A stretch of 64,000 nucleotides of DNA from positions 578,172 through 642,171 of the forward strand of contig OY970358.1 in the NCBI GenBank assembly GCA_963718575.1, given 5' to 3'. The notes under the pieces are model-generated. The model was given only the letters and a program-made list of their open reading frames with translations, was not told the origin of the DNA and made no database searches. A program made the position numbers and the translations under genes. This document shows, one piece after another, positions 760 to 32,036 of this stretch; positions within the stretch are counted from its first letter, which is position 1; every line of letters begins with the position of its first letter. This stretch comes from an uncultured bacterium. GTDB lineage: Bacteria > Patescibacteriota > Minisyncoccia > UBA6257 > 2-01-FULL-56-20.

Positions 760-1307
760 ATCTTTATTCTAACCGCTTAGTTATCTTATAGCAAATGGCC
801 TATTTCGGCATGCTATCGAAGTAGCGATTGAGGATTCTTTCGAGGATGGGATCAAGTGTATCGCGTAACTCAAGAAGCTCTTGATCGGAGAGTTCGTTTT
901 CACTGTCTATTTTTCTTAATTGTTCAAGAGATAACACAAAAGGCCGCCCTTTGGCGGGTGGAGATAATAAAAATGACCTTTATTCCACTCGCTGAGGACG
1001 GCCCAATGCCTTTCAGCTAATAAAAACTAGCTATTGAATTAATTTAATTTTACGCTTTTCGCGGCGGTTGTCAACTAAGCCGATTAGAGGTATCTTGATG
1101 ATAACAACTGAATATAAGTCGCCTAAACCTTTGAGCAATCAAGGCATGGCGCAAAACTCCCTTCGCAGATACCAAACTCCACGTTCGGCTATTCTGCGAA
1201 GGGTCATATCTCGAAAGGGATATGGGCATCGCAAGATGCCAGCCAGCGTGGAGTTTTGTGCTAAATAGGCCGATCCACGCTCCAGTAAAAATAAAATAAT
1301 TTTCAAA

Positions 1308-20744: not shown

Positions 20745-22454
20745 ATGAGTACCGAAATCATTCAAATTTTAAAGAGCATCTTCGGCCCAGACGCGCCGAT
20801 CGGGGTTTCGGTGCCTGACGCGGAACTTTTCGGCCACTATTCGACCAACTTCGCGATGCGCGAGGCAAAAGCCAAGGGCGTACCGCCTCTCGACCTCGCC
20901 AAGGAATACGCCGCGAAGATTGCCGCCGCGGCGCCCGGAGGATTCTTCTATAAAGTGGAAGCAGCCGCGCCGGGCTTCATCAATTTTTGGCTGAGCGATA
21001 AAACATTGCAAGGCGAATTCGCCGCGATCGCAGGAGATAAGAACTACGGCGAGAGCGCCGTTGGAAAAAGGAAGTTGGTGATCGTGGAATATTCATCGCC
21101 AGGCATCGCGAAGCCGCTGCACCTCGGGCACATGCGCACGACGATCATCGGCGCGGCGCTCGCGAACATCCTTGAGCTCTCCGGCTATCGCGTGGTGCGA
21201 TGGAACTATGTCGGCGACTGGGGCACTCAGCTTGGCAAGCTCATCGCCGCATATAAACTATGGGGAGAGAAAGAAAGCGTGGAAAATGATCCGATCGAAG
21301 AACTACAAAAGCTGTATGTTCGATTTAACGCGGAAATGAAATCCGATCCCGCACTTGAAAAGCGTGGTCAGGAAGAATTCAAAAAATTAGAAGATGGCGA
21401 TCGCGATAATCGAAAATTATGGGAGTGGTTCAAAAAAGAGTCATTGAAGGAGTTTAAGAGAATATATCGAACGCTCGATGTCGGGTTTGACGTATGGATC
21501 GGCGAGGCGTTTTTCGAGCGCGAGAGTGCGGATACCGTGCAAGAGCTATTGGATAAAAAGATCGCTGAGCACAGCGAGGGAGCGGTAGTGGTCAAACTTG
21601 AGGCATTTGAGCTACCACCGGCGATGGTGCAGAAGTCCGACGGCGCGAGTCTGTATCTTACGCGCGATATTGCAAACCTTCGCTATCGGATTAAGAAATA
21701 TAAGCCGGCAAAGATACTCTATGTAGTGGGCAACGAGCAGGCGCTTGCGTTCGAACAGCTTTTTGCGGTCGCGCAGCTGCTCGGATGGCACAGCGCTGAG
21801 TTGAAGCATGTAAAGTACGGGTTGGTGTTGGGCGAGAGCGGTAAGAAGCTTTCCACGCGCGAGGGCACGGCTCAGCTGTTGCAGGGCGCTATCGATGAGG
21901 CCGTGGTCAAGGCGCGCGAGGCGATCGAGGCGCGGAGCCCCGACTTTTCGCCAAAAGAAAAGACCGAGATCGCCTTTGCGGTCGCGCTCGGCGCGCTCAA
22001 GTATAACGACCTTAAGGAAAATCGCACGACGGACATCGTTTTCAATTGGGAAAAGATGCTCGATTTTTCCGGCGACAGCGGGCCATATTTGCAATACACC
22101 TATGCGCGATTGAAAAGCATTTTGCGCAAGGCCGGAGTCAGGGAATCAACGCTCCGGCCGGATGCGATCGATGTATCATTGCTCGTGCACACAAGTGAAC
22201 TCGCGCTCATGCGGAAACTTTTCGAGTTTCCCGATGTCGTCGTACGCGCGGGTGAGCTGTACTCCACGAGCACGCTCGCCGTCTATCTCTATAAGCTCGC
22301 CGTCGCCGCGAACAAGTTCTACGAGACGACGCCGATCTTGAAAGGCGAGGATGATGCCAGGCGCCGCGCGCGCCTCTTGCTTGTTGCGACCACCGCGCGC
22401 GTCTTGCAGAAAGGATTGGAACTCCTTGGGATCAAAACGCTTGAAAAAATATAA
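20745..22454 (+). CDS. argS: Arginyl-tRNA synthetase.
   Basis: Class I HIGH-type motif (PLHLGH) and overall ArgRS domain order. Confidence 0.9.
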   Translation: MSTEIIQILKSIFGPDAPIGVSVPDAELFGHYSTNFAMREAKAKGVPPLDLAKEYAAKIAAAAPGGFFYKVEAAAPGFINFWLSDKTLQGEFAAIAGDKNYGESAVGKRKLVIVEYSSPGIAKPLHLGHMRTTIIGAALANILELSGYRVVRWNYVGDWGTQLGKLIAAYKLWGEKESVENDPIEELQKLYVRFNAEMKSDPALEKRGQEEFKKLEDGDRDNRKLWEWFKKESLKEFKRIYRTLDVGFDVWIGEAFFERESADTVQELLDKKIAEHSEGAVVVKLEAFELPPAMVQKSDGASLYLTRDIANLRYRIKKYKPAKILYVVGNEQALAFEQLFAVAQLLGWHSAELKHVKYGLVLGESGKKLSTREGTAQLLQGAIDEAVVKAREAIEARSPDFSPKEKTEIAFAVALGALKYNDLKENRTTDIVFNWEKMLDFSGDSGPYLQYTYARLKSILRKAGVRESTLRPDAIDVSLLVHTSELALMRKLFEFPDVVVRAGELYSTSTLAVYLYKLAVAANKFYETTPILKGEDDARRRARLLLVATTARVLQKGLELLGIKTLEKI

Positions 22455-22912
22455 AAAATTTTATAGAATTGCCTCGGTTCGGGAAATTTTCCAATGGAGG
22501 GGCAGATGAGGGATATCGGAAGGAAGTTGTTTGATGATGACTACGGACAGTGGAGGATAATGTTTCATTCCAGTAGAGCATACCGGAGCGGCGACGCATA
22601 TGTCATCAATGGATTTCGCTTTCCAGAGACGCTAGTGGCGAAGCAAGCACGGTAGCGGGGTTTGTCTTGAAGGAGGGATATTGTATCTTTCCTGACTCAA
22701 CATTCGATTCAGAGGGGGTGGAGTGCCTGATAATAAAGTCCCGCCGTCCCGATGGACCACCTATAGTGGAATTTCTTGTTCCTCTCCATTTAGTTCGGGA
22801 CATCGGCCTCAACCTTAAAGTCTCTCTATCGCGATAACAACAATATTCCCGTGGCGCGCTATGCCTGCGGGAATTTCTTTATAAATCATCGAAAACCTGC
22901 TATTTTAAGGTA

Positions 22913-25900
22913 ATGACTAAGAAATCTTCGCGGACGCCGCATTTTCTTGAGGGCGAGATAAAGCTTCCAGAGATGGAAGAAAAAGTGCTGGCGTTTTGGG
23001 ACGAGCATAATATTTTTGAGAAAAGTTTAGAACAGACCGCCGACGGCGCGCCGTTCACTTTTTACGACGGGCCGCCGTTCGCGACGGGACTTCCCCACTA
23101 CGGGCATATTTTGGCGTCCACGATAAAAGATGTCGTGCCGCGCTATCAGACGATGAACGGCCGCTTCGTGCGCCGCCGGTGGGGATGGGATTGCCACGGG
23201 CTTCCGATCGAAGAGCTCGTCGAGCGTGAACTCGGCATCTCCGGCAAAAAGCAGATCGAAGCGGTCGGCATCAAAAAATTCAATGAGACATGCCGGAGCT
23301 TTGTATTGAAATATGCCGCCGAATGGCGGCAAACGGTCCGCCGCATCGCGCGCTGGGTGGACTTCGATGATTCGTATAAGACGATGGATACCGATTTCAT
23401 GGAATCCGTATGGTGGGGATTCAAACAGACGTACGACAAGGGCTTGATCTATGAGGGCCGCAAGGTGTTACTCTATTGTCCGCGCTGCGAGACGCCGCTC
23501 TCGAACTTCGAGGTCGCGATGGATAACAGCTATAAGGATGTCACGGAGGAGTCGGCATATGTGAAATTTCACTTGAAAGCCGGTCAAAAATTCGGAAACT
23601 ATACGGCTAAGGATTCTGTTTACCTTGTGGCGTGGACGACGACTCCATGGACATTACCGGGAAATGTCGCACTTGCGGTAGGGAAAAATATTTTATATAC
23701 CGCACTCCGCATAAAAGACGTGCAGAAACTTTATATTGTTGCAAGTGAACTTGTTCAAAAAGTTTTTAAAGATCAAGAGATTGAAATTGTTCATGGAGAG
23801 ATAAAAGGAAAGGATCTGATTGGCCTCGAATACGAGCCGCTCTTTACTATTCCTATACTGCAATCCGAAAAATCTTATCAGGTCTATGCTGGAGATTTTG
23901 TAAATACTGATGACGGCACGGGCATCGTACATATCGCACCGGTGCACGGCGAGGACGATTATACATTAGGCGTAGCAAACGGCTTGCCGATCGTGCCGCT
24001 GCTCGACGAGCGTGGAATCTTCACTGATAAGGTGCCGGAGTTTTTACGCGGACAATACTTTAAGAAAGCGGATAGGCTGGTGATCGAGGATTTAGAGAAG
24101 CGGGAACTGCTTTTCAAAAAAGAAACCATCACGCATTCCTATCCGCACTGCTGGCGATGCGGCACGATGCTCTATTACAACGCGCTCCCGGCGTGGTTTG
24201 TGAACATTCAAAAGATAAAGCCGGGGCTGCTCGCATCGAACGAGGCCGAGATCAGCTGGTTTCCGGAGCACCTTAAGCACGGCCGCTATCAAAAGAGCGT
24301 GGAGGCCGCGCCCGACTGGAACATCTCGCGCAATCGGTACTGGGGCAATCCGGTGCCGGTATGGAAATGCGGCGATTGTGGACATGTCGAAGCGGTGGGG
24401 AGTATGGACGAGCTTTCAAAGAAGGCGGGCGGTTCGAAGAATAGCTATTGGGTAATGCGGCACGGCGAGGCGGAGAGCAATATGTTCGACATCCTCGACT
24501 CCGGCCAGAGAAAATATCTTCATCTCACGCCGCGTGGCAAGGAGCAGGTGCTGACTTCGATAGAGAAGTTCAAAAAAGAGCTGGCGCATGAGGGCAAGAA
24601 GATCGATGTCGTCATCGCGTCCGACATCACGCGCACGCAGGATACGGAACATATCGTGGCAAAGGTGCTGACGGGAGAAAAGGAGATCGCGCACGAAGGA
24701 TTGGAAGAGATCCATCTTGGGCCGACGCTCACCGGCTATCGCGATGAAAAATATGCACAGATGTTTCCCAGCTACGAGGCGCGTTTTGAGAAACAGCCGG
24801 AGGGAGGGGAGACGTTACGTGATCTCCGCGCTCGCGTGTGGAAATTTTTGAAAGAGTGCGAAGAGATCTACGCGGGAAAGAATATCCTGCTCGTGACGCA
24901 CGAATATCCTGCGTGGATGCTTTTCCAAACTGCGGAAGCGTGGAGTGAGAAGCGTGCGATCGAAGAAAAGAAAAAGCGTGATGGTGATTTTATTAGCTTC
25001 GCCGAGATTCGAAAATTGGATGTGAAAGTGGTGCCCCGCGACGACACGGGCGAGGCGGATCTCCATCGGCCTTACATCGACGACATCACATTCCCGTGCG
25101 AAAAGTGCGGCGGTGTGATGACGCGCACGCACGGAGATCTTCGATTCATGGATCGAAGCAGGCTCAATGCCGTTTGCGGAGTACCACTATCCATTCGAGA
25201 ACAAGGAAGAATTCAAAAAACATTTCCCTGCGCAGTTCGTGTCAGAATACGTCCCGCAGACGCGCGCGTGGTTCTATCTTTCGCACGTCGTGTCGTATAT
25301 TTTGTTCGGCCATGCGCCGTTCGAAAATGTGGTGACGACGGGAAATGTGCTTGGGGATGATGGTTTTAAGATGAGCAAGTCGAAGAAAAATTTCCCCGAT
25401 CCCCAATTGGTGATCGATAAGTTCGGCGCTGATAGCCTACGTTTTTATCTCATGGGTTCTGTTGCAATGCAGGCAGATGATCTGACTTTTTCCGAGAAGA
25501 GCGTCGAGAGCGTGTATCGCAAAGTGGGGATGTTGCTTACGAACGTCTATAAATATTTCGCCACGTATCGCGGGGAGGTGGCGGGAGAAATTTCCGGCGG
25601 TGGTGAAGCGACCAACGCCGCCGCAGACGACAATATTCTCGACCAGTGGATCACCGCGCGGACTGAAGAGCTGGCGGATATCGTGACGCGCTCGCTCGAC
25701 ACGTACGACACCGTCCGCGCCACGCGCGCGGTCCAGGAATACGTGGACGACCTCTCCACGTGGTATCTGCGCCGCTCGCGCAAGCGTAAGGATGCGGGGT
25801 TTTTCAGGACGATGCAGGCGTCGCTTTTGACGACGAGCCGGGTGCTTGCGCCGTTCATGCCATTTCTCGCGGAAGCGCTCCATGCGGAGCTTGCCGCGCA

Positions 25901-26477
25901 CGATGCGCCGGCGTCGGTGCATTTGGAAAAATGGCCGGAGATAGCGTTCACGTTGCCGGAAAAAGAGCGAGCGGAGCTGATGGACAGCATGACGGAGATC
26001 CGTCGTCTTGCGAGCCTCGGACTTTCTGCCCGTGCGGAGGCAAAGATCAAGGTGCGTCAGCCGCTCGCAACGATGACCGTGCGCGGCGCGGAAGCGACGA
26101 TCCGCGACGAGCGCCTCCTCGCCATATTGAAGAACGAAGTGAATGTGAAAGAGATCGTGTTCGCGCCGGAGCTTGCGAACGAGGTCGAGCTCGACACGGT
26201 CATCACGCCCGCGCTCCGCGAAGAAGGATTGGTCCGCGAAGTGGCCCGCATGTTCCAGGAGCTTCGTCAGAAGGCCGGGCTCGAACCGAAGGATAGGATT
26301 GTTGCGATGATGGAGCTACCAGAAAAGACGATGCAAGTGATCGACAGGAATGAATCTTCATTTTTAAAAGACATCGGTGCGACCGTGGTGGAATTCGGAC
26401 ACTCCGATAAATTCATTGCAGAAGAGATAGCCAAGCTCGAAGGGGAGGATGTATGGGTGGCGGTGCGGAAGGGGTAG
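22913..26477 (+). CDS. ileS: Isoleucyl-tRNA synthetase. It carries an inserted histidine-phosphatase domain and an apparent single-nt frameshift at about 25128-25140.
   Basis: HYGH (HIGH), the CP1 editing region, WKCGDCGH and then DLHRPYIDDITFPCEKCGG. After the frame change the ORF continues as EIFDSW.., MPFAEYHYPFEN and KMSKS (FKMSKSKKNF). Listed as two ORFs, 22913-25360 and 25167-26477. Confidence 0.85.
24437..25050 (+). other. Histidine phosphatase (PGAM-like) domain inserted within IleRS.
   Basis: YWVMRHGEAESN (RHGE), LTPRGKEQ, IDVVIASDITRTQDTEHIV, QPEGGETLRDLRARVWKFL and ILLVTHEYP match the branch-1 histidine phosphatase motif order. Confidence 0.6.
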
Positions 26478-27876: not shown

Positions 27877-28524
27877 ATGCAGACAAATAAGACGGTCTAT
27901 TTTGTTCGTCATGGCGAAAGCGCCGATAATGCCGCGCCGGTATTTCAATCCCCGGATTCGCCATTAACTCAAAAAGGACGGATGCAGGCGGAAAAGATCG
28001 CTACCCGCGCGAAACATCTTTCTTTTGATGCGTTCATCACGAGTCCCTTTCGGAGGGCGGAAGAGACAGCGGAGATTATTTCAAAAGCCACTGAGAAAAC
28101 GCCGGAGCGATCAGCGCTTTTTGTCGAGCGAACAAAGCCGACGAGCGTGAACGGCAAACTTCATACCGATGAAGAGGCGAGCGAGGTGTGGCGAGAGTGG
28201 AATGAAAGTTTATACACACCGGGTATGCGAGTCGAAGATGGGGAGAACTTTGACGACATCATTACACGCGCCGATAACGCGCTTGCTTTTCTTAACGTGC
28301 GTCCCGAAAAATCCATCCTCGTTGTGACGCATGGATATTTTCTTCGAACGATCATCACCCGCGTCTTGATGCAGGAGCTGCTTTCCGCCGAAGCATTCAA
28401 AAAATTTCAGCGCATGGCATCTATGGAAAATACCGGACTAAGTGCTCTCCGTTACGAAGGAAACACACCGGAAGAAATGAGATGGCGTCTTTGGATCTAT
28501 AATGACCATTCACATTTAGGATAA
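27877..28524 (+). CDS. Histidine phosphatase family protein (PGAM-like), free-standing.
   Basis: VYFVRHGESADN (RHGE) and ILVVTHGYFLR. Confidence 0.7.
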   Translation: MQTNKTVYFVRHGESADNAAPVFQSPDSPLTQKGRMQAEKIATRAKHLSFDAFITSPFRRAEETAEIISKATEKTPERSALFVERTKPTSVNGKLHTDEEASEVWREWNESLYTPGMRVEDGENFDDIITRADNALAFLNVRPEKSILVVTHGYFLRTIITRVLMQELLSAEAFKKFQRMASMENTGLSALRYEGNTPEEMRWRLWIYNDHSHLG

Positions 28525-29997: not shown

Positions 29998-31675
29998 TTA
30001 TATCTCAATCACCACCGGCAAAATCATCGGCCGGCGCTTCGTCTTCGCGTACAGATATTGCCCGATTTGATCGCGTAAGAGCGTTTTCACGTAATCCGGC
30101 TCCACTTCCTTGAAGTTGGGGATGCGGGTCATGAGGCCGCGGATGCGCTTGCGGATCTCGTCCAGGATCTCCTGGTTGTCTTTCAGATAGATGAACCCGC
30201 GCGAGATGATGTCGGGATTCTTGAGCAGGCGGCCCTTGTCGCGATCAACAGTGAGGATAATGACGAGCATGCCTTCCGCGGCGAGTGCGCGGCGATCGCG
30301 GAGCACGACCTCTTCGACGTCGCCGACGCCGAGGCCGTCTACCATCACGTAGTATGCCGGCACTTCTTCTTTGGTGACCTTGAATGTGTCCTTTGTGAGC
30401 TCAGCCACTTGGCCGTTGTCCATGAGGCGCACGTTGTCTTTCAATACACCCGCATCGCGTCGCGGTCATGCCGTTCGCGGCGCGCATGAAGTAGTAGCCG
30501 TGCACCGGCATGAGGAACTTCGGCTTGAGGAGTTTGATGACGAGCCCGATGTCGCCCTTCGGCGCGTGGCCGGAGGAGTGGATGTCGACGAGCGCGGAGT
30601 GGAAGACGATCGCGCCCTGGCGCGCCAAGTTATCTTTGACGGTCTGCACGCTGCGCTCGTTGCCCGGAATGACGGACGATGAAAGCACGAACGTGTCGCC
30701 GGCTTTGATCTTGATGTAGCGATGTTCGCCGTTGATGATCTTCATGAGGCCGGCGTTCGATTCACCCTGTGCGCCGGTCGTGAGGATCAACACTTTGTCA
30801 TCTTTGTACTTGCTGATCTCCTCCACGGAGATGAGCGTGCCTTCCTTTGCTTTTACAAAGCCGAGGTTCTGCGCGATCTGGATGTTCGTCTTCATCGAGT
30901 AGCCGTTCAGCGCGACCTTACGGCCGATCTTCTCGGCGATCTTGATGATCTCCGCGATGCGCGTGATGAGCGACGAGAACGTCGCGACGACGATGCGACC
31001 TTCCGCGAGCTTGAAGATTTCTTCCAAATTTCGCTCGACGGTCTTTTCGGAAACCGAGTGCCCCGGCTTTTCCGCGTTCGTGCTGTCTACCATGAAGGTG
31101 TGCACGCCCATCTTGCCGAGCTTCTCGAATTCTTCGATGCCGTGCACGTTGCCCTCGTCATCATAGTCCAGGCGGAAGTCCGCAAAGTGGACGATGTTGC
31201 CGATCGGAGTCTTGAGCATCACGCCGGTCGTTTCCGGGATCGTGTGCGGCACGCCGAAGAAGTATGCGTTGATGTTATTGGAGAGCTTCATCTCGTCGCC
31301 GTCCTTGATGATCTGGATGTTCATCTTTGGCGCGTTCGGAAAATCATCCGCACGCTTTTCGATGATCGCTTTCGTGATGCCCGTTGCGTAGATCGGCGGG
31401 TTGCCGAGCCGGGCGAGCACGTGCGGCAATGCGCCGATGTGATCGTAGTGGCCGTGCGTCAGAATGATCGCGGCGATGTTCTGTTTTTTCTTTTCGAGAT
31501 AATCAACGTTCGGGATGATGTAATCAATGCCCGGCGTTTCGTCTTCCGGGAATTGGAGTCCCATGTCGATGATGACGATCTCGTTCTTGTATTCGATGAA
31601 CGAGCAGTTGCGGCCGACCTCTTCCAGGCCGCCGAGCGGCACAAGGCGCACCGCATTCGGATTCGGATTTTTCAT
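29998..31675 (-). CDS. rnj: Ribonuclease J (metallo-beta-lactamase / beta-CASP), with an apparent 1-nt frameshift near 30455-30470.
   Basis: MKNPNPNAVRLVPLGGLEEVG...THGHYDHIGALP (HxHxDH)...beta-CASP. The downstream ORF continues as DNVRLMDNGQVAELTKD...VDGLGVGDV, which is the RNase J C-terminal region. Confidence 0.8.
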
Positions 31676-31689
31676 TCGGATCGCGCGCC

Positions 31690-32036
31690 ACCTGCGGCTT
31701 GGGACCCATCTTTGAATTCTGCGGATGCGTGCCGGGTTTCGGCGCGCCCGGGCCGTGTTTGAATTCGCGGCGCGCTTCGCGCTCTTCGCGCGTGCCGCCT
31801 CCTGTACCACTACCACCGCCGTGCTGAGGGCGCTGTTGGGGACGTGCCATTGGCCGCACGGGGGATTGCCCCGGGCGCGGCGAAGGACGGCCGCCTGGGC
31901 GCTGTGTCGGTCGCGCAACCGGCGCGCCGACGGGCGTTGCCGTCATCGGCGCTCTTGGCCGGATCTCCGGCGGTTTTATACGCGGACGCTCTTTTTCTGC
32001 GGGGGCTGCGTTGTTATTTTCGTTTTTCTTAATCAT
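31690..32036 (-). CDS. Pro/Arg/Gly-rich low-complexity ORF upstream of and overlapping the rnj start in another frame. Possibly a frameshifted N-terminal extension, possibly spurious.
   Basis: ORF 31524-32036 reads MIKKNENNNAAPAEKERPRIKPPEIRPRAP... in a GC-rich stretch. Confidence 0.2.

Follow-up and report, generated by a model that had tools for sequence, protein, structure and literature searches.

A histidine phosphatase domain nested in the isoleucyl-tRNA synthetase of Patescibacteria

Introduction

Aminoacyl-tRNA synthetases (aaRSs) are among the most thoroughly catalogued enzymes, and a phosphatase is not one of their known accessory domains; the AARS Online catalogue of aaRS domain superfamilies includes none (PMC11580382). 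The architecture of the type-2 form (eukaryote/archaeal-like, mupirocin-resistant) of isoleucyl-tRNA synthetase (IleRS) is documented for Priestia megaterium IleRS2 (8c8v), yeast (8wnd/7d5c) and Thermus thermophilus (1ile). It comprises a Rossmann fold with the HIGH and KMSKS motifs, the CP1 editing domain, CP2, a zinc-knuckle CP3, a helical anticodon-binding domain and type-2 C-terminal domains. CP3 is a subdomain of the Rossmann-fold catalytic domain that corresponds to residues 473-534 in Candida albicans IleRS and bears a zinc motif in T. thermophilus (PMC7191050). Here, we describe an IleRS of this architecture in which a histidine phosphatase domain is nested in the CP3 hairpin. It is encoded by the ileS gene of an uncultured member of the Patescibacteria, on a stretch of 64,000 nucleotides of contig OY970358.1 (assembly GCA_963718575.1, positions 578,172 to 642,171 of the forward strand) that we call the window.

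The domain had been noticed in a reading of the window made from its letters alone (hereafter, the sequence-only reading), which held a phosphatase embedded in an aaRS to be undescribed. In agreement, full-text searches of the literature that combined IleRS or aaRS with histidine phosphatase, phosphoglycerate mutase, Patescibacteria or the candidate phyla radiation (CPR) yielded no description of this architecture, and a 2026 preprint on IleRS domain evolution makes no mention of a phosphatase insert.

Results

A histidine phosphatase in the CP3 zinc knuckle

The relevant features are given below in window coordinates. Residue numbers are those of the IleRS of 1187 residues that is obtained once a single extra base is removed from ileS, and conservation counts refer to 119 aligned IleRSs that carry the insert and whose overall identity is 51-80%.

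22913..25128, + strand: ileS before a one-nucleotide indel; IleRS residues 1-739 with the editing domain, the CP3 subdomain and the nested phosphatase (open reading frame (ORF) list; TIGR00392; PF00133, E=4e-127)
23096-23107, + strand: HIGH motif, here HYGH (residues 62-65)
24368..24379, + strand: first CxxC of the CP3 zinc knuckle (C486, C489), just 5' of the insert, read from the sequence
24431..25054, + strand: nested His_Phos_1 domain (residues 507-714), including a C-terminal return segment of ~35 residues
24458..24463, + strand: R516-H517 of the RHG motif, invariant in 119/119; H517 is the predicted phospho-acceptor
24632..24634, + strand: R574, second phosphate-binding arginine (SDITRT motif), invariant in 119/119
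24707..24709, + strand: E599, predicted general acid; Glu in 113 and Asp in 6 of 119
24899..24901, + strand: H663, second catalytic histidine (LLVTHEYP motif), invariant in 119/119
25097..25108, + strand: second CxxC of the CP3 zinc knuckle (C729, C732), just 3' of the insert, read from the sequence
25129, + strand: surplus G that throws ileS out of frame, very probably an indel introduced by assembly or sequencing
25130..26477, + strand: ileS after the indel; residues 740-1187 plus stop, with the second Rossmann half, the anticodon-binding domain and the C-terminal DUF5915
25368-25382, + strand: KMSKS (residues 819-823)

Alignment with yeast IleRS (8wnd) matches residues 16-506 of the window protein to residues 8-493 and residues 715-1088 to residues 498-888; therefore, 208 residues stand in place of 4. 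The insert lies between the two CxxC pairs of the knuckle, of which C486, C729 and C732 are invariant in the family alignment, and its junctions read ...KKAG/GSKN... and ...TGE/ADLH.... The limits first proposed for it, 24437-25050 (residues 509-712), fall inside the insert but a few nucleotides short of its true ends on both sides. In a close relative (P0236), the same site is occupied by five residues and the insert is absent. The guanine-plus-cytosine (GC) content is steady across the insert (0.53-0.57). A horizontally acquired island or a chimera was rejected on account of this uniform GC content and of the recurrence of the architecture in many independent assemblies. In line with the sequence-only reading, an intein was rejected as well, since the Pfam scan contains no Hint or intein family, splice-junction residues are missing and the fold is that of a histidine phosphatase.

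The identity of the insert, first proposed from its motifs (RHGE, LTPRGKEQ, SDITRTQDT and LLVTHEYP, all of which are present), is borne out by a hidden Markov model search. PF00300 (His_Phos_1) matches residues 513-679 with E=5.7e-22 and 78.8 bits against a gathering score of 21.7, and the excised insert reaches 84.1 bits. R516, H517, S570, R574, E633, R641 and H663 are invariant in the 119 insert-bearing IleRSs and residue 599 is always Glu or Asp, so that no catalytic His or Arg has been lost from the Arg/His/Arg/His set. As judged from this alignment, the catalytic core is under strong purifying selection and the insert is a complete and probably active phosphatase.

AlphaFold models are confident for the domain both alone (predicted local distance difference test (pLDDT) 93.9; predicted template-modelling score (pTM) 0.91) and within the full-length IleRS (pLDDT 88.4, pTM 0.82, with pLDDT values of 86-97 across the insert). 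The insert is a discrete domain, and its model adopts the alpha/beta fold of the histidine phosphatase superfamily. A PDB profile search with the domain returned PhoE (1e-29), PspA (1e-26) and CobC (3e-21). In structural comparisons, the domain scored highest with small-molecule enzymes, namely PspA phosphoserine phosphatase (21.5), the glucosyl-3-phosphoglycerate phosphatase GpgP (20.9), PhoE (20.8), the HFP phosphatase of riboflavin biosynthesis (9mmh, 20.0), CobC (19.5) and the phosphoglycerate mutase dPGM (19.0), and lower with the protein phosphatases PGAM5 (15.0), SixA (14.8) and Sts-2 (13.6). The aligned portion covers 183 residues with PspA and PhoE and only 136-159 with protein phosphatases, and the top matches are all small-molecule phosphatases with a cap subdomain. 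SixA has a minimal, capless fold of ~155 residues.

The term 'PGAM-like' used in the sequence-only reading holds at the level of the fold, but the dPGM models score far below their cut-offs (NF038349, 45 versus 225 bits; NF002339, 29 versus 316; TIGR01258, no match to the insert) and the nearest types are PhoE, PspA and CobC. Even so, the models of CobC (TIGR03162, 36.9 versus 162.9 bits), PspA (28.6 versus 350), GpmB (30.2 versus 261) and sixA (TIGR00249, 24.5 versus 74.5) also remain below threshold. One of the mutase-specific substrate residues of dPGM is an Asn located two residues after the second His (H-G-N motif). The window reads T-H-E-Y-P at this point, and the sequences read show H-E-Y, H-E-D, H-G-D and similar strings, with no H-G-N; across the 119 homologues, the second His is followed by Glu 79 times, by Gly 25 times and by Asp 9 times. 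An identity as phosphoglycerate mutase or SixA is thus rejected by curated model scores, motifs and fold comparison, and on these scores the insert is classified as a branch-1 member of the superfamily that belongs to no characterised sub-family.

Distribution across Patescibacteria

With the full-length protein as query, 119 of the best 120 clusters carry both PF00133 and PF00300. Their source names are all patescibacterial (Minisyncoccia, Paceibacterota, Jorgensen-, Lipton-, Doudna- and Nomurabacteria), with one UniRef entry. Two narrow peptide patterns retrieved 72 loci in GTDB species-representative genomes, again all from Patescibacteria, and IleRS flanks the insert on both sides in 69 of them. 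In total, the insert is carried by at least 119 protein clusters and at least 69 GTDB species. A comparison of the insert alone with 1.84 billion cluster representatives gave 198 matches at E<=1e-10; among the 146 further matches listed, 96 occur with IleRS, 48 are short free-standing proteins, one is joined to arginyl-tRNA synthetase (ArgRS) and one is a TsaC fusion. The public records of these proteins are named only 'isoleucyl-tRNA synthetase' or 'class I tRNA ligase family protein'. The phosphatase in IleRS is thus a lineage-wide feature of Patescibacteria that has gone unremarked in hundreds of database sequences. The sequence-only reading had foreseen neither this spread nor the partnership with argS and ileS described below.

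A rough neighbour-joining tree of IleRS cores, which is only indicative, gathers the main nested group in one cluster that also contains the insert-less P0236; this position suggests a secondary loss of the insert in P0236. In the same indicative tree, the IleRSs encoded downstream of free-standing phosphatases branch beside the nested cluster. At the locus of P0236, which is the only close relative seen without the insert, an Exo_endo_phos gene (PF03372; L156:8931-9704) overlaps the stop codon of the insert-less ileS by 4 nucleotides. A general role of Exo_endo_phos as stand-in where the insert is absent was rejected, since this gene was seen at one locus only among the loci examined.

Other insertion sites and other fusions

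The same phosphatase family is found at four sites of IleRS in all, with up to three copies per protein. Site A is the CP3 hairpin, as in the window; site B lies inside the second half of the zinc knuckle, site C after WFESGSMPYA and before FPADFIAEG, and site D between the catalytic core and the anticodon-binding domain. Multi-copy IleRSs combine sites A and D (P0297), C and D (P0372) or B, C and D (P0364). Among them, P0372 (1419 residues) has the identical length in six assemblies, on contigs of up to 1.06 Mb. Copies inside one protein are 26-33% identical and domains at different sites 26-35%; the former value does not support intragenic duplication as the origin of the multi-copy proteins. 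A further IleRS (P0386, 1066 residues, JGI) bears an IS200-like Y1 transposase domain in its editing region, His_Phos_1 at the CP3 site used in the window and a GNAT domain after WFESGSMPYA, and shows how many foreign domains such IleRSs accommodate.

Besides IleRS, the family is fused to ArgRS in two proteins, one at L130:3381-5570 and the other (P0363) at L158/L159:5001-7070 in two assemblies. In these fusions, the C-terminal Met of ArgRS runs straight into the phosphatase; at the P0363 loci, RecO lies downstream and ileS is not adjacent. In a single case (P0333, L157:977-2140), the phosphatase is fused to TsaC/YrdC (Sua5_yciO_yrdC), the threonylcarbamoyl-AMP synthase of N6-threonylcarbamoyladenosine (t6A) biosynthesis. 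This gene is flanked by a P-type ATPase gene and an unknown gene, with no aaRS gene beside it.

Free-standing counterparts in an argS-hp-ileS operon

Two further genes of the window bear on the origin of the insert:

20745..22454, + strand: argS (ArgRS), the conserved upstream neighbour of ileS (ORF; Pfam families of the identical gene in L073)
27877..28524, + strand: free-standing His_Phos_1 gene, a distant paralogue of the insert (PF00300, E=2e-33; 26% identity)

The nearest free-standing relatives of the insert are proteins of ~195 residues from other Patescibacteria, which are 35-40% identical to it and share its C-terminal 'GE(L/I)R(K/E)L' segment. One such protein, P0271 of a Staskawiczbacteria genome, has its gene flanked by argS and by an ileS that lacks the insert, at distances of 3-5 nucleotides; smpB precedes these genes, as it does in the window. 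When metagenome contigs were scanned with the free-standing family irrespective of gene context, 80 loci were returned, of which 73 had at least 400 nucleotides of downstream sequence. An ileS start was found on the same strand within 300 nucleotides downstream (mostly 3-40) in 57 of these 73 loci and at 365-1200 nucleotides in 6; the phosphatase is nested in IleRS in 2, and ileS was not detected downstream in the remaining 8. The IleRSs that follow a free-standing phosphatase are without insert. Upstream, argS is the direct neighbour on the same strand in 67 of 69 free-standing loci, and it also lies upstream at 58 of the 72 nested loci. The nested loci have no other member of the family within 6 kb, and nested and free-standing forms never occur together in the loci sampled. 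Phosphatase and ileS thus appear to be conserved gene partners, in an arrangement denoted argS-hp-ileS (hp, the phosphatase gene).

The IleRSs encoded after a free-standing phosphatase (L076-L155) are of two kinds, with 34 window-like loci and 34 divergent ones whose HIGH motif is mostly HHAWG. Free-standing members are basic (median of +9.1 charges per 100 residues, isoelectric point (pI) 9.9) compared with the adjacent IleRS (+1.1) and ArgRS (+3.1); their loci have a GC content of 35%, and the ArgRS encoded there also has a pI of 9.3. Nested domains are near-neutral, with a median net charge of -3 (-5 for the window insert).

The gene at 27877-28524, which the sequence-only reading named as a paralogue of the insert, indeed belongs to the same superfamily, but the real free-standing counterparts are the argS-hp-ileS proteins. 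These match the window insert with 88-118 bits, and only two of nine tested match 27877-28524 (51-60 bits). A recent duplication of that gene as source of the insert was rejected because of the low identity and of the far better fit of the operon family. In the window, the argS-ileS spacer (22455-22912, 458 nucleotides) contains no relic of a free-standing phosphatase gene and no match to an Rfam family such as the T-box; in the counterpart of this spacer in L073, an ORF of 53 residues is called.

The host enzyme and its reading frame

The repaired protein matches the ileS equivalog TIGR00392 with 825 bits (cut-off 621) and carries tRNA-synt_1, Anticodon_1 and DUF5915 in addition to PF00300. 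The class I and type-2 signatures are intact, with HYGH, KMSKS and the CP1 editing motif WTTTPWT (residues 241-247). The full-length model superposes on 8c8v, 8wnd and 1ile (Foldseek E=7e-85, target-normalised TM-score 0.82-0.89), the best structural matches being the type-2 enzymes 8c8v and 8wnd; at the sequence level, phmmer matches type-2 IleRS with E=1e-214.

In the window itself, the frame of ileS is interrupted. The plus-strand ORF 22913-25360 encodes IleRS over its first 739 residues and out-of-frame nonsense over its final 76, and the C-terminal part resumes in the +1 frame and runs to 26477. The interruption is due to the single G at 25129, where the window reads CGCAC[G]CACGG and two related loci (L073 and L074) read CGCACCACGG; deletion of one base restores a continuous protein. 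The sequence-only reading overlooked this frameshift. The broken product of 815 residues (P0170) belongs to a 90% cluster that includes a member of 1187 residues (P0387), which is identical to the reconstruction at 1186 of 1187 positions. P0387 is encoded intact, in the same gene order, on two independent assemblies (JGI and Logan) from the same species-level population, which match the window over 14.3 kb with a DNA identity of 99.8%; in ileS, the window differs from them by the extra G and two substitutions only. In related genomes, 61 of 63 complete insert-bearing ORFs are intact. The window also contains an RNase J gene that is split on the minus strand into two overlapping ORFs (29998-30444 and 30401-31918) and forms a single ORF of 678 residues in L073, which makes a second indel error in the window assembly probable. 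Because two 99.8%-identical assemblies are without the extra base, 61 of 63 relatives are intact and RNase J is split as well, the break in ileS is ascribed to an assembly indel, and a programmed frameshift or a pseudogene was rejected on the same evidence. We regard ileS as a single intact gene, made up of 22913-25128 and 25130-26477, with a break that is most probably an error.

Elsewhere in the window, positions 1120-1240 (+ strand) match the LOOT RNA of Rfam (RF03000) with 92 bits against a gathering score of 46.

Discussion

The phosphatase-bearing IleRS reported here is real, widespread and undescribed in the literature searched. The linkage of its phosphatase family is tight and recurrent to IleRS and looser to ArgRS and TsaC, and this pattern implies an unrecognised phosphate-removing step tied to tRNA charging or modification in minimal-genome, mostly uncultured bacteria. 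It also has consequences for annotation, since pipelines label these proteins 'class I tRNA ligase family protein' and gene callers split them at assembly indels, as in the window.

The explanation that we favour builds on the identity of the domain, its intact catalytic core, its insertion site, its wide distribution, its operon linkage and its fusions; to these, it would add catalytic activity, a class of substrate and possibly an effect on aminoacylation. It proposes that an active small-molecule phosphomonoesterase serving adenylate-forming tRNA enzymes was captured from the operon into IleRS. As a whole, this proposal is tentative and in our judgement falls a little short of an even chance; its structural and evolutionary core is very likely. 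According to this core, a functional type-2 IleRS harbours, nested in the CP3 zinc-knuckle hairpin, a branch-1 phosphatase of the PhoE/PspA/CobC structural type, from a Patescibacteria-specific family that is a separate operon partner in other lineages and was captured inside IleRS here (a 'Rosetta stone' fusion). In the active site, H517 is predicted to attack the terminal phosphate of the substrate with formation of a phospho-histidine intermediate, R516, R574 and H663 would hold the phosphate and E599 would protonate the leaving group; the intermediate would then be hydrolysed and phosphate released. Tethering or co-translation may ensure proximity and a constant stoichiometry. Strict channelling is unlikely, given that members of the family also reside in surface loops far from the active site.

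The substrate is expected to be a small phosphate-bearing molecule, not a macromolecule, and would be linked to the adenylate chemistry ATP -> AMP + PPi (pyrophosphate) because this chemistry is common to all three fusion partners. IleRS, ArgRS and TsaC, all in tRNA metabolism, convert ATP into an adenylate and PPi, and AMP is finally released. AMP or a similar nucleoside monophosphate would be the simplest candidate because it is the sole phosphomonoester released by all three. PhoE accepts AMP, and CobC acts on a nucleotide-like 5'-phosphate. PPi is physiologically attractive, yet it is no established branch 1 substrate. As for the alarmones or Ap4A-like by-products put forward in the sequence-only reading, nothing in our data points to them, and the superfamily works mainly on terminal phosphomonoesters. 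Any specific substrate named at this stage is unlikely, at best, to be the right one.

Several points weigh against the phosphomonoesterase proposal. No substrate is transferable by homology because every curated sub-family model lies far below its cut-off. Breakdown of AMP beside a synthetase makes little sense in organisms believed to depend on nucleotide salvage, and a freely diffusing small molecule has no obvious need of a tethered enzyme. The site D loop, which is disordered in the model at residues 894-904 and distant from the synthetic site, argues against channelling. Moreover, the insert is not strictly needed by IleRS, as its apparent loss from the close relative P0236 indicates; the ArgRS fusions need no more than the loss of a stop codon, and the argS-hp-ileS order could persist partly by descent. 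The latter points would also fit a housekeeping phosphatase that is active but mechanistically unconnected with aminoacylation, kept by descent in an smpB-argS-hp-ileS block and absorbed into the permissive surface loops of its neighbours in streamlined genomes, with co-expression as the only gain. Indeed, the phosphatase was inserted into hairpins or surface loops (the tip of CP3 and the loop at 894-904), P0236 is a normal IleRS after the loss, and the unrelated GNAT and IS200-like transposase domains hosted by IleRSs of this kind imply that insertions are tolerated; the identity of only 26-35% between sites would make the events old and few. However, end-to-end fusion is much more probable than an in-frame capture that splits an essential gene, yet such a capture is seen at four IleRS sites. 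The association also survives the switch between the window-like and the 'HHAWG' type of IleRS (34 loci each), outlasts the separation from ileS in the ArgRS fusion with RecO downstream and reappears with TsaC/YrdC in an unrelated context. We consider a mere housekeeping role unlikely.

A distinctly unlikely alternative is a phosphatase for the repair of tRNA ends, which would strip a blocking 3'- or 2'-phosphate left on the acceptor end by, for instance, nuclease or toxin damage and make the tRNA chargeable again. IleRS and ArgRS both bind the tRNA acceptor end, the insertion sites are spread along the synthetase, and the free-standing members are markedly basic; this high pI is partly a trait of low-GC loci, where ArgRS shares it, and the nested domains are near-neutral. 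The Exo_endo_phos gene that overlaps the insert-less ileS could be cited in its favour, as this superfamily includes RNA 2',3'-cyclic and 3'-phosphatases such as ANGEL2, but it is a neighbour at one locus only. In addition, the nearest structures are capped small-molecule phosphatases, with the open-site protein phosphatases lower in rank, TsaC does not handle the tRNA 3' end and, to our knowledge, no histidine phosphatase acts on RNA ends. The structural ranking also bears on a protein phosphatase that would reverse, in cis or in trans, an inhibitory phosphorylation of the synthetase as a built-in antidote or regulatory switch. HipA-family toxin kinases phosphorylate the KMSKS loop of GltX and TrpS; CP3 belongs to the catalytic domain that bears KMSKS, and other IleRSs carry GNAT, a type of enzyme able to modify proteins. 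Nevertheless, the insert keeps the cap subdomain typical of small-molecule enzymes, as reflected in the extent of its structural alignments, and stays well below the sixA cut-off; no kinase was found in the neighbourhoods examined, and a phosphatase at site D would sit far from KMSKS. Such a function appears highly improbable. Finally, the frameshifted ileS and at least one other split gene in the window could suggest an artefact, namely an assembly chimera, a pseudogene or motifs that match by chance. This possibility is practically negligible: it is refuted by the intact ORF of 1187 residues in two independent assemblies, and the recurrence of the architecture in at least 119 protein clusters and 69 species-level genomes, the Pfam match (E=6e-22), the confident structure models and the uniform GC content of 0.53-0.57 all speak against it.

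A bolder view, which we also deem unlikely, combines elements of the two repair scenarios. The phosphatase could be a dedicated quality-control or repair module of aminoacylation that removes a blocking phosphate from the tRNA acceptor end or from the synthetase itself, as an antidote to toxin kinases or pyrophosphokinases. If so, Patescibacteria would have built substrate- or self-repair into IleRS, other lineages would supply the repair in trans from the argS-hp-ileS operon, and the module would represent a new class of aaRS accessory function beside editing.

Compared with known systems, the insert is closest to PhoE (YhfR) of Bacillus stearothermophilus, PspA of Hydrogenobacter and the alpha-ribazole-5'-phosphate phosphatase CobC. 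It shares their alpha/beta fold with cap subdomain and their catalytic set (RHG, a second Arg, an acid Glu and a second His), but is only ~20% identical to them, remains below the sub-family cut-offs and has the additional C-terminal return segment of ~35 residues. Furthermore, PhoE, PspA and CobC are stand-alone metabolic genes, whereas the members of the present family are nested in an aaRS or encoded in its operon. Another union of a branch-1 phosphatase with a nucleic-acid enzyme is the Rv2228c-type RNase H/CobC-like acid phosphatase (NF005567), which is the best NCBIfam match of the insert (55-59 bits, far short of the 326-bit cut-off); there, the phosphatase is joined end to end with RNase H and is not nested in an aaRS. 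On the side of the host, NF040702 (ileS_w_GNAT, 'isoleucine--tRNA ligase, N-acetyltransferase domain-containing') also describes an IleRS that accommodates an unrelated enzyme domain, but this is a GNAT at another position; P0386 combines such a domain with the phosphatase at the site used in the window. The window IleRS is not a member of that family, given its score of 313.8 bits against a cut-off of 1999 and the absence of any match to an acetyltransferase family. The nested domains of class Ia synthetases, such as CP1 editing or the leucine-specific domain of leucyl-tRNA synthetase (LeuRS), are likewise folded domains in a loop of the Rossmann fold that leave the host fold intact. Whereas these domains have aminoacyl-tRNA or aminoacyl-adenylate as their substrate or serve to position the tRNA, the insert carries the machinery of a phosphatase, and it does so in the CP3 hairpin, a position at which none of the solved IleRSs bears a domain.

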